Origin: Pristiophorus japonicus | Lineage: Eukaryota | DNA length: 64,000 bases | Direction: 5' to 3' | NCBI RefSeq assembly: GCF_044704955.1 | Contig: NC_091979.1 | Location: 110,174,001-110,238,000, forward strand | Part shown: positions 4,991 through 54,923 of the stretch, piece by piece | How the letters are laid out: every line of letters begins with the position of its first letter | How positions within the stretch are numbered: position 1 is the first letter of the stretch | The notes under the pieces: generated by a model | The model's input: the letters and a program-made list of their open reading frames with translations, nothing else | Databases searched by the model: none | What the model was told of the DNA's origin: nothing | Translations under genes and position numbers: made by a program

Positions 4991-5073
4991 GCCAATTCTT
5001 CCAGATGTCAATTAACCCAATGTGCATTTCTAGTGTTTCCTTATCACAGAGCTCATGTTCCGGGAGATTTACC

Positions 5074-6702
5074 CAGTGGCATAACTACGCTAATGCAGCC
5101 AATGCAGTGGCATTGGGGCCCTCGCCTGAAGGGGGGGGCCCACCACCTGCTTCCTCGCGAACTCGTTGGCGATGTGGCTCAGCTGGAAAACGCTCTCGTC
5201 CATCCTCTTGGTGAAAGTTTTGAACCGGTCGACACTGCTCTGCACCTCCTGCAGGTCGAGGGGGCTCTGCGGGGTGCTGAGCATCAAGAAGAAGTTGCCC
5301 CCCACCATGTCGTCATCCTCGGCTTTCCCCTTGCCCTGCTTCCAAGCCTTCTCGTCGTTGCAGGTGAGGAAGTGCTAGAAGGCGTCGCAGCGGGTCAGCA
5401 CCGGGTGGCTCCTCATGTGGTTCATCCAGAGGGTCAGCCCTTTCTTCCTTTTGGAGATGAAGTCCTCCTCGAATGACTTGCTTCTCGGGGATGTGGGGCA
5501 CCGAGATGACGGGGAACTTCTCCACCAGCCGGCCGTACAGCCAGTTGAAGTGCTTGTAGTGCTGGTTAACCGGGCACTGGGTGTGGCTGGACACCAGGCT
5601 ATATGAGATGTAGCTCTTGATGCTGTTGAACTTGGTCTGCTTTTCGATGGAGCAGACAAATGGGTAAGGGTTCTCCTGCCCCTCGGGGCCTTGCGGGCCG
5701 GCTGCCACACAGATCTTGTCGCCGTCCTTGATGAAGCCGGCCGCCTCGCCTAGGATGAATGCCTCGCCGCCCGACTTGACGAAGGTGGAGAAGCGGTTGA
5801 GGTTCCTGCTGACCGTGGCTGTGCTCTTGGAGGAGGAGGTGGCGGCCGAGGAGGACATCAAACCCCCGACATTCTGGCCGCCGGCCCCCGTGCTCACACG
5901 ATAATGGCCCGTCCCGTTGAAATCCGAGAACCACCGCCACCCCCGGACAGGGGCTTGTCTGCTACCATCGAGTTATCGTCCCAGTCATCGATGCCTGACG
6001 CTTGATGCTGCAGCCCCGTCAGGACCTGCCCCCCGAGGCCACCACTGCCTGTTCAGGCGACAGATGGGGGGCAGAAGGTGCTGGCGGCAGGGCAGAGCGG
6101 CAGGGGGATGCCACTGAGGGGGCTGAGGTGGCGGTGGGCTGTCGTAGCTGCCGGTCGGCACGTTGGCATCGTGGGAGGCGGGGGTCTCGGCTGCACCGGC
6201 ACCAACACCGGGCGTACTGCCGCCCCCGCTCCCGGCCCGCAGGATCTGCATGTACGAGGCTGGGAAGAGGCCCCTCTGGCCGCAGCTGTTGGCCTCCTCC
6301 AGCCAGCCCTCGATGTCGTGCTCGCTGTACATGGTCAGCACCTTGTCCTCCCGCACCGAGATCTCGCCCACACATTCTCGCTCTGGAAATCGTACAGAGC
6401 CCGAGCCTGGAGCGCCATCGTCCCGCCATCCACATCTGGCTCAGCTCTGCTGCCGGACCCCGCAGTGACCCCCCCCCACCCCGTAAACCCTCCCTCACAT
6501 CGGTCTTGACTCCCCCTCACACCGGCTGCCCCAGACTCCGAACTCCCTCTTCGCCACCGCCACCGTCCCCCCCGGACTCCCTCATTCGAGGAGCGGCTGC
6601 GCGGGGTCTTCCCGGGCCGGCTGCACTTTTCCCTGTCGTTCTGTGATTTTTTTTAAAAACCTATGTTTGCATTGGGGCCCACATCCTCTAATTACGCCAC
6701 TG
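5074..6702. mobile_element. Non-autonomous hAT-type DNA transposon carrying an SNX18 fragment (Pack-TIR)
   Basis: Left end is CAGTGGCATAACTA (5074-5087). Right end reverse-complements to CAGTGGCGTAATTA (6689-6702), 12/14 identical. Exact 8-bp TSD GATTTACC at 5066-5073 and 6703-6710. Subterminal GCATTGGGGCCC motif at both ends. No transposase. Confidence 0.9.
5138..6418 (-). pseudogene. SNX18: SNX18 (sorting nexin-18) 5' fragment, disabled: SH3, low-complexity region, PX and start of BAR
   Basis: ATG at 6418 gives MALQARALYDFQSENV/GEISVRED...GLFPASY (SH3). Then [20 protein letters not shown] and [40 protein letters not shown] (PX), ending at EFARKQVVG. Frameshift near 6370, frameshift near 5475, stop at 5375-5377, 3' truncated. 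Confidence 0.92.
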
Positions 6703-7130
6703 GATTTACCTGTAGTCGATTATCATCCTCGGGAGACTAATTGGGTTGGGTACTGTTCAGATAGGGCAAATTGTCCTGAGGGAACAGGCTTCATGAGCTT
6801 TACTTATTCCATATTTTTTTATTATTTTTCAGTGAAAAACTTTGCCTACACTATGACAGTCACTGCATTTCAAAGAAATCCATTATATGCCAAGAGCTTT
6901 GCGATGTCTCTGAAAGATGTGATAAACCCAAGTATTTCTTTCCATTCACACTTCTGTGCTTTTTAACCAAATGTAATGTTTCAGTCATAACCAATGCTGC
7001 ATCTGAAAGCTGCTTTAATTAAACAACACAGTATTGTGCGAGAGACTGCTAAACATAACGTTCAATGCTAGACAGATCACATTTCAAAAATCAACAACCC
7101 AATGTTCTAAAGTATTGCACAATTACTCAC

Positions 7131-7229
7131 CTTGGAGGTTTATTTTCAGCAAGTTTATATTCTGCCAGTTTCTTCTGATGATAGAGACCAGCATAGATGT
7201 AATAAAAAATGTGAAAGTTTTTCTCGCTC
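7131..7229 (-). CDS. MYO3B: MYO3B coding exon ((A)[32 protein letters not shown](R))
   Basis: Acceptor tttactttcag|G and donor CCAAG|gtgagt. 99 bp. Contains the myosin EKNFHIFY motif. Phases fit both neighbouring exons. Confidence 0.96.
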
Positions 7230-51756: not shown

Positions 51757-53074
51757 ACTGGCGACGAGATACAAATAGCGAACACAAAGATGCAGTGAAC
51801 AGTGGGCATCATGGAGAAATTCTTGGAGGGAGATGATTGGGAAACTTTTGTAGAGCGACTCGGCCAATACTTCATGGCCAACGAGCGAGATGGGGAAGAG
51901 AGCGCTGCCAAACAAAGGGCGATCCTCCTCACCGTCTGTGGGACATCAAAGTATGGCCTCATGAAGAATCTGCTCACGCCAGCGAAATCCACGGAGAAAT
52001 CGTACGACGATTTGTGCACACTGGTCTGAGAGCATTTGAACCCGAAGGAAAGCATTCTGATGGTGAGGTACTGGTTCTACACCTACAAAAGGTCTGAAGG
52101 CCACGAAGTAGCGAGTTATGTCGCTGAGCTAAGACGCCTTGCAAGGAGACTATGGTGAAATGGAACACCTCCAACGAGTGTGCAGGCGAGCTGCAAAGCC
52201 CGTTAAACCTGCAAAGCACCATGTTGCAGAGGAGGACAGATCCACGGAGAATCACCATGAACCAGAGCCTCAGATCGAGGAGGTAGAGGTACATGGGGTA
52301 TACACATTCACCACGAACTGTCCCCCGATAATGCTGAATGTTGAACTAAAAGGACTCCCGGTGTCAATGGAGCTGGACACAGGCATGAGCCAGTCCATCA
52401 TGGGCAAAAAGACTTTCGAAAGATTGTGGTGCAACAAGGCCTCAAGGCCAGTCTTAACTCCAGTTCGCACGAAACTAAGAACTTACACAAAAGAACTGAT
52501 TCCTGTAATCGGCAGTGCTACCATAAAGGTCTCCTACGATGGAGCGGTGCACAAGCGACCACTCTGGGTGGTATCGGGCGATGGTCCCATGCTGCTCGGC
52601 AGGAGCTGGCTGGGAAAGATACGCTGGAACTGGGACGACGTCCAAGCACTATCGCCCGCTGACGACACTTCGTGTGCCCAGGTCTTTCACAAATTTCCTT
52701 CGCTGTTCGAACCAGGCATCGGGAAATTCCAAGGAGCAAAAGTGCAGATCCACCTAATTCCAGGGGCGCGACCCATCCATCACAAGGCAAGAGCAGTACC
52801 GTACATGATGAGAGAAAGGGTAGAGATCGAGCTAGACTGGCTGCAAAGAGAGGGCATCATTTCACCAATCGAATTCAACGAGTGGGCCAGTCCTATCATC
52901 CTAGTCCTCAAGGGAGACGGCACCGTCAGTATCTGTGGCGATTACAAAGCAACTCTCAATTGTTTCTCCCTGCAGGACCAATACCCACTACCAAAGGCCG
53001 ATGACCTCTTTGCAACGGTGGCTGGAGGAAAGATGTTCACAAAGCTGGATCTGACTTCAGCCTATATGACGTAG

Positions 53075-53737
<663 letters not shown>

Positions 53738-54923
53738 GTCAAAAATCTAATTTTACCTTCAGTATCTGAATCATCTAATGGGCAGACCACACCAACAGAC
53801 CTTAATAATTCTTGGTCTGCAATCCAGAGCTATGAGATTCCTGTGTTCACAGATGTAATACATGCTCGCAGTTAAGCAATGTACCCAGGGAGGCGCCGCT
53901 AAGTTTATGGTCTTGGCCCTCCAAACCATGGTCTAGGGTACATGCCGACTATGCAGGCCCATTCTTGGGTAAAATTTTCCTCGTGGTTGTAGACGCGTAC
54001 TCCAAGTGGATTGAATGTGAGATAATGTCGGCTAGCACGTCCGCTGCCACTACTGAAAGCCTGCGGGCCATGTTTGCCACTCACGGCTTACCCGATGTCC
54101 TGGTGAGCGACAACCGGCCATGTTTTACCAGTGCTGAGTTCAAAGAATTCATGACCCGTAACGGGATCAAACATGTCACATCTGCCCCGTTTAAACCAGC
54201 GTCCAATGGTCAGGCAGAGAGAACAGTGCAAACCATCAAGCAAGGCTTGAAGAGGGTAACTGAAGGCTCACTGCAGACTCGCCTATCCCGAGTCCTGCTT
54301 AGCTACCGCACGAGACCCCACTCGCTCACTGGGATCCCACCTGCTGAACTGCTCATGAAAAGAGCACTTAAGACAAGGCTCTCGTTAGTTCACCCTGATC
54401 TACATGAACAGGTAGAGAGCAGGCGGCTTCAACAACGTGCATACCATGATAGCGCAAATGTGTAATGCGAGATTGAAATCAATGATCCTGTATTTGTATT
54501 GAATTATGGACAAGGTCCTAAGTGGCTTCCTGGCACCGTTGTGGCCAAAGAGGGGAGCAGGTTGTTTCGGGTCAAACTTTCAAATGGACTAATTCACCGG
54601 AAACACTTGGACCAAATTAAACTCAGATTTACGGACTATCCTGAGCAACCCACCTTGGACCCTACCTTTTTTGATCCCCCAACATACACACCAGTGGCAA
54701 CCAGCACCACAGTTGACCTTGAAGCAGAACCCATCATCCACAGCAGCCCAGCAGGACCCAACACACCAGTCAGCCCAGCAAGGCCAGCTGCACAGCAGCC
54801 AGCGAGGGCCCAACAAATGATTCAACAATACCAGCTTTCACACCGAAACCATCAACCAGGGCAAGAAGGGCCCCAGATCAACTCACATTATAAATAGTTA
54901 CATTATTGGCTTGGGGGGAGTGT

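Follow-up and report, generated by a model that had tools for sequence, protein, structure and literature searches.

A multicopy non-autonomous hAT family carrying the 5' part of SNX18 in the genome of Pristiophorus japonicus

The window analysed here, a stretch of 64,000 nucleotides from Pristiophorus japonicus, contains a non-autonomous hAT element whose interior is derived from the 5' part of the host gene SNX18. Our analysis makes it very probable that the element is a member of a family with at least 115 copies, which likely arose by a single capture of SNX18 during repair and likely spread in one burst by the transposase of a related 3.8-kb hAT element. Such a capture by a non-autonomous hAT had been proposed in a sequence-only reading of the window, and it is borne out by the presence of the same cargo at many sites, next to different target site duplications (TSDs), and by the lack of the element ends at the parent gene.

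The element in the window and its SNX18 cargo

The element in the window is 1,629 bp long (5074-6702), has inverted ends and is bordered by the TSD GATTTACC, the first copy of which (5066-5073, plus strand) is identical to the second (6703-6710, plus strand). Both this exact 8-bp duplication and the terminal inverted repeats (TIRs; 5074-5087 and 6689-6702) were found as the sequence-only reading had claimed. Relative to the 14-bp family TIR each arm of the window copy has one change, and the TIR at 5074-5087 (plus strand) contains the TAG that closes the chimeric frame of the family founder. The same reading had assigned 60-65 bp of element-like sequence to each end; the corrected lengths are 66-68 bp for the 5074 end and 44 bp for the 6702 end, to which about 9 bp of T/A filler are joined. 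The shorter end (6659-6702, minus strand) adjoined the former transposase gene on its 3' side, and the longer one (68 bp, 5074-5141, minus strand) on its 5' (promoter) side, the same end being present on transposase-bearing and cargo-free elements. Within the longer end, positions 5138-5141 form a GGGC microhomology common to the hAT end and SNX18. The filler at the 5' junction (6650-6658, minus strand) matches neither hAT nor the parent gene and varies among copies.

The cargo between these ends, which are 44 and 66 bp long, is one continuous block of 1.55 kb and lies within the 100-5000 bp of host sequence by which Pack-TIRs are defined. It is read on the minus strand and comprises, in the window copy, 231 bp of SNX18 leader 5' of the ATG (6419-6649) and the coding sequence that corresponds to the first 444 codons of the founder frame (5142-6418), starting with the ATG at 6418 and ending in EFARKQVVG without poly(A). 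Pfam and the alignment to the parent gene identified in this coding sequence an SH3 domain (about 6246-6400), followed by a low-complexity linker, a PX domain (about 5369-5615) and the start of a BAR domain of the SNX9/18/33 type (about 5142-5365), all on the minus strand, so that the originally suggested composition of the cargo was upheld. The interior of the element has a GC content of 0.57-0.68 compared to about 0.4 in its surroundings. Its identity to the parent SNX18 is 87%, and the frame is disrupted by four frameshifts and two stops.

The element sits in the intron following a host myosin-head coding exon (7130-7228, minus strand, i.e. the strand of the cargo), about 420 bp from the element. 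The Pfam match of this exon is weak and below the cut-off, and a PDB search with it likewise gave weak myosin matches only. Elsewhere in the window, broken remnants of a Gypsy-like LTR retroelement with protease, RT and integrase-like frames, as judged from the list of open reading frames, were seen at 52133-54465, and, judged from the same list, the host introns at 12300-33100 presumably contain numerous CR1-like and RTE-like LINE fragments.

Family size, transposase partner and timing of the spread

A search of the animal's own genome (5.9 Gb) with the whole element gave 217 candidates, 40 of which were scored, with near-full copies on many contigs. In total 100 distinct loci were collected from 23 contigs, including three with less than 40 bp of cargo in the stretch examined and one without an end, and both ends are present within the examined stretch in 59 copies. 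Among these 59 the two TSD copies are identical in 21 cases and differ by one mismatch in 23, by two in 6 and by three or more in 9. With at most two mismatches in 50 of 59 pairs, compared to a mean of 0.37 (maximum 5) among shuffled pairs, the agreement is not due to chance; moreover, five of the nine poorly matching pairs drop to two mismatches or fewer when the element boundaries are allowed to move by up to 2 bp. All 59 TSDs differ from one another, and the copies are independent insertions. An independent search with the other element end (B) yielded 103 matches, 100 of them listed, and among those listed 74 are loaded with SNX18 and 26 (24 loci, five assigned by position only) are cargo-free, a ratio of about 3:1. 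Known loci account for 59 of the listed matches, and 15 of 16 newly examined ones are loaded (2 of them judged by the junction only). The loaded family thus comprises at least 115 loci with the same SNX18 cargo and different 8-bp TSDs, with a mark-recapture estimate of about 125 that is itself a lower bound, and the mobile gene-carrying family that had been anticipated from the window does exist. Cargo other than SNX18 between the same ends was found neither in 30 loci obtained with the A end (21 with SNX18, 9 with hAT interior) nor in the 16 new B-end loci.

The SNX18 junctions, at which the hAT interior is replaced, are the same across copies. Two later subfamilies are defined by deletions, one of 378 bp, in frame, in 12 of the 59 copies and one of 394 bp in 6 of 59; with different TSDs at their insertion sites, these two derivatives re-amplified and kept jumping. 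Some individual loci deviate from this general picture. Two loaded copies on the same contig (L002 and L007, both C13, 3.5 Mb apart) have 19 derived changes in common, compared to no more than 6 in all other pairs, which suggests a later duplication or gene conversion. One cargo-free insertion (L084-L095, mostly at C4:132.27-132.71 Mb) is present with the same flanking 8-mer at no fewer than ten loci and is copied within a larger tandem or segmental repeat, and another cargo-free copy (L062:3446-3541) has at its end a TIR-plus-TSD unit that is present three times in tandem.

The nine A-end loci without SNX18 have an AT-rich interior instead, which encodes the domains DUF4371 (E 1e-16) and Dimer_Tnp_hAT (E 5e-10). 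Cargo-free relatives with the same ends, whose existence had been posed as an earlier check, are therefore present, and one type of them encodes a hAT transposase. The fullest copy of this partner (L190, C9:158248535-158252308) is about 3.8 kb long with 34% GC, is decayed and misses its final bases; none of the copies examined has an intact transposase. The loaded element retains the first 44 bp and the last 66 bp of the partner, while about 97% of the interior is replaced by a cargo that is antisense to the lost transposase gene. The nearest matches of the transposase are labelled ZMYM1-like or DUF4371 proteins, and a "ZMYM1-like" transposase with DUF4371 and hAT-dimerisation domains is typical of Tip100-like elements. 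In the 59 TSDs T occupies position 3 in 29 cases and A position 6 in 30, with counts of 23 for T2 and 20 for A7; this profile follows cleanly neither the target preference of Ac (T2/A7) nor that of Buster (T4/A5). The hAT identity proposed from the window was confirmed by the 8-bp TSDs, the 14-bp TIRs, which lie within the 10-25 bp reported for hAT elements (PMC3942097), and a partner with the same ends that falls within 2.5-5 kb. An 8-bp TSD and a short TIR are also features that the present family has in common with the Tip group (PMC3942097). The protein closest to the partner transposase (L190, L063) that we found is from a parasitoid wasp, with 61% identity over about 570 residues, compared to 43-45% for the coelacanth. 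This similarity is a lead to a possible horizontal transfer.

When divergence was measured against the commonest letter of each alignment column, the 59 loaded copies differed at 4.7% of non-CpG sites (2.6-8.8%) and were changed at 17% of CpG sites. Loaded and cargo-free copies, the latter represented by 39 stretches (three pairs of which belong to the same element), are of equal age, with non-CpG divergences of 5.2% and 5.4%, respectively, at G/C sites and of 3.2% and 3.1% at A/T sites, and with a CpG loss of 17% in the cargo-free set as well. Copies of the same subfamily and copies of different subfamilies alike share about 1.1-1.4 derived changes per kb, a star-like pattern. The equal divergence of loaded and cargo-free copies, together with shared changes at background level, points to one short burst. 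Dating with the epaulette-shark pedigree rate of 7e-10 per generation (PMC10587355) gave an implausible value of about 6e7 generations, and this rate was discarded.

Parent gene, route of capture and fate of the copies

The parent SNX18 locus (C2:114731882-114733205, L015) has no hAT ends, and its intact frame continues beyond the capture breakpoint up to a GT donor. It is identical to a UniRef entry labelled SNX18a, Pristiophorus japonicus. Sequences similar to hAT were not detected in about 20 kb around this locus, which answers another of the earlier checks: the ends do not belong to the parent locus. Likewise, no SNX18 copy adjoins the parent, and the founding locus was not found among the copies. 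The SNX18 sequence flanking the limits of the cargo in the parent has one genome match per side, and as these parts outside the cargo are single-copy, the family goes back to one parent and one capture. The breakpoints in the parent are at C2:~114731792 on the 5' side and at about L015:2820-2823 on the 3' side. Between parent and founder 29 of 1,293 coding positions differ, 19 of them silently, which is consistent with capture and burst having been close in time.

The cargo carries lineage-specific residues in a comparison with nine cartilaginous-fish proteins, among which there is no squalomorph outgroup. In its linker (codons 60-135), on the other hand, it retains states of other sharks and rays that have since been lost in the parent, and the leader is composed of the same blocks in parent and copies, but is shorter by about 130 bp in the present parent (L015:1411-1504). 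The dead copies conserve an older state of the shark SNX18 linker and leader, from which the parent has since lost several linker codons and ~130 bp of leader sequence.

The limits of the capture coincide with a change in base composition. Third-position GC in the parent is ~0.93 as far as codon 446 and about 0.5 beyond it, still within the same exon, with a change point at parent positions 2837-2852, i.e. 15-30 bp beyond the 3' breakpoint, and dense CpG begins in the 200-bp bin adjoining the 5' breakpoint. The captured piece (parent L015:1410-2850) is essentially the parent's CpG island, a single case with a coarsely placed 5' edge. This finding fits the GC bias of captured cargo that has been reported for multicopy Pack-TIRs (PMC8277862) and, more speculatively, open chromatin could have been the template and thereby have set the limits. 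We also considered whether the CpG-island cargo gave its copies lasting protection against methylation, an idea that was rejected, given a CpG decay of 17% in loaded and of 17% in cargo-free copies.

The route that we favour would begin with the excision of, or a break in, a hAT element, followed by abortive gap repair or by template switching. Starting at one hAT end, repair synthesis would have changed over to SNX18, continued for 1.55 kb and been joined to the other hAT end by annealing at GGGC, leaving a short filler on the opposite side. With both transposase-binding ends retained, the product could have been mobilised in trans, likely by the 3.8-kb hAT transposase, and its spread would then have been a single short burst. 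Gap repair or template switching is suggested by the position of both breakpoints within 70 bp of the termini and by the loss of ~97% of the hAT interior, and mobilisation in trans by the shared ends and the equal age. In addition, many cargo-free deletion derivatives have their breakpoint at a distance of 34-60 bp from the A end, which is what abortive gap repair, a process established for Ac/Ds, would produce. The two junctions differ, as GGGC at the 3' junction is common to hAT and cargo (GGC in the present parent), while the 5' junction has T/A filler and not microhomology, which speaks against this route. A 113-bp empty mini-element formed between the two internal GGGCCCC repeats, considered as a precursor, gave 0 matches at up to 3 mismatches, which does not prove its absence.

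The same family and the same spread would result if an SNX18 mRNA or cDNA had been patched into a broken hAT element. The cargo consists entirely of the first coding exon and leader of the parent and crosses no known intron that could discriminate between the two templates, and the non-templated filler at the 5' junction would be in keeping with an RNA template. However, the 3' part of the mRNA and the poly(A) are absent, and a search with the parent sequence outside the cargo found no SNX18 3'-end retrocopy. Moreover, the 1.55 kb of cargo are uninterrupted and have the same limits as a genomic CpG island, and GC-rich capture is the pattern reported for multicopy Pack-TIRs (PMC8277862). We consequently regard an RNA template as unlikely and a DNA template as likely; the latter has to be inferred, since no intron is spanned by the captured segment, the 5' limit of which may fall in the 5' UTR.

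The frame of the founder is open for 461 codons from the ATG to the TAG within the TIR, and could encode a 461-residue protein with SH3, PX and a truncated BAR domain. The open frame raises the question of whether selection maintains the family, or some of its copies, in the role of a novel truncated SNX18 gene or regulator. The copies themselves speak strongly against it, with pN/pS values of 0.86-1.27 by class, a pooled nonsynonymous fraction of 0.644 compared to an expected 0.654, 70 stops in 59 copies and frameshifts in 57 of 59, while the CpG decay mentioned above is the same as that of cargo-free copies. Among the long copies a single one (L146, C5:118231404-118232670; 331 codons) is still open between the ATG and the TIR stop, but it has accumulated 38 nonsynonymous and 25 synonymous changes (p=0.25) and has a damaged SH3 domain, and the lowest selection p-value (0.005, L122) fails correction for 59 tests. 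Part of a further, decayed copy (L129, C4:194005977-194007486) has a UniRef entry of 247 residues, named "sorting nexin-18-like" and including a transposon-derived tail, which might be taken as a sign of function, but this entry is likely an annotation artefact. A search for proteins with such chimeric tails in other species gave one match among 88 candidates, which is L129 itself, a weak result given how rarely decayed copies are annotated. The copies evolve neutrally, none showing selection that keeps the frame, and maintenance by selection is very improbable. That a truncated SNX18 retrocopy or segmental duplicate obtained hAT ends by chance and was then copied passively can be dismissed as next to impossible, for although passive duplication of this hAT does occur (the cargo-free insertion with one common TSD at ten or more loci), this account is refuted by 59 distinct TSDs directly adjoining the TIRs, and it conflicts with the same junctions replacing the hAT interior across copies and with the single-copy flanks of the parent.

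Comparison with known gene-capturing transposons

The shark family is a new multicopy Pack-TIR, likely formed by a known process but on a scale far beyond the published vertebrate cases compared. As in the Pack-TIRs of Tan et al. (2021; PMC8277862), it has one unambiguous parent without a transposable element in its flanks (L015), and its 59 distinct TSDs on 23 contigs characterise it as multicopy. In that survey 370 Pack-TIRs were described from 100 animals, 208 of them hAT, with a median cargo of 224 bp, none of them from the elephant shark, and with only 4 multicopy families. The sequence-only reading had called such capture rarely described in vertebrates; the phenomenon is on record there in the form of Pack-TIRs, though multicopy cases are rare in that survey, with these four families (PMC8277862). 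The window copy, with 87% identity, lies below the parent-identity filter of at least 90% used by Tan et al. (2021), a detection cut-off rather than a biological feature, and their pipeline would therefore likely miss the shark family. Old families missed by 90%-identity screens may thus be more frequent in large shark genomes than has been assumed. The text of 12 supplement files of the survey (PMC8277862) does not contain SNX18. The openly accessible literature yielded no paper on the shark family, and on transposable elements in the species one unrelated paper; an entry in a repeat library such as Repbase or Dfam may exist.

Since all actors are still present, namely the transposase partner, the parent gene, both junctions and the later subfamilies, the mechanism of capture can be tested directly, as can the idea that the breakpoints were set by the limits of the CpG island. 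The SNX18 copies are also of practical relevance, as they mislead annotation, one being listed as an SNX18-like protein, as well as read mapping. A much bolder scenario would make this family the most extensive case yet seen in a vertebrate of host protein-coding DNA amplified by a TIR transposon, in which a hAT that may have come recently from an invertebrate took up precisely one CpG island, this cargo made the loaded form the most mobile of the family, and more than 100 sources of BAR-truncated SNX18 or of SNX18-matching small RNAs once acted back on the parent; as a joint proposition we consider it improbable.

Among the published cases Pack-hAT-N8_XT from Xenopus tropicalis (PMC8277862) is similar to the shark family in having hAT ends around a host fragment, distinct TSDs, a location far from the parent, junction microhomology and GC-rich cargo. 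However, it has 3 copies with 291 bp of 5' UTR, compared to at least 115 loci with 1.55 kb and 444 codons in the shark, where copies are about 40-fold more numerous, the loaded form outnumbers the cargo-free one and the transposase partner is identified (PMC8277862). Similarly, Ssk-FB4 of Drosophila melanogaster (PMC8277862) represents a protein-coding gene that was captured from its 5' upstream region onward and re-transposed, but this element is MULE-like with long TIRs, occupies 3 loci plus one tandem copy, and is young, nearly a whole gene and positively selected, whereas the shark family is hAT, old, half a gene and neutral. In Pyrenophora tritici-repentis a hAT with a histone H3-like gene (PMC3538342) likewise carries a host gene in tens of copies and has a shorter non-autonomous derivative; in contrast to the shark family it is fungal, its cargo lies beside an intact transposase, and its copies are near-identical and transcribed (PMC3538342). 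Bat Helitrons also amplify pieces of host genes, but by a rolling-circle mechanism without TIR and TSD, and the plant Pack-MULE and Pack-TYPE elements, which differ in their host kingdom, resemble the shark family as non-autonomous DNA elements amplifying host gene pieces. In the 100-genome survey of animals (PMC8277862) gene capture by TIR elements was almost always a single-copy dead end, and the SNX18 family of Pristiophorus japonicus represents a plant-like outcome in a vertebrate.
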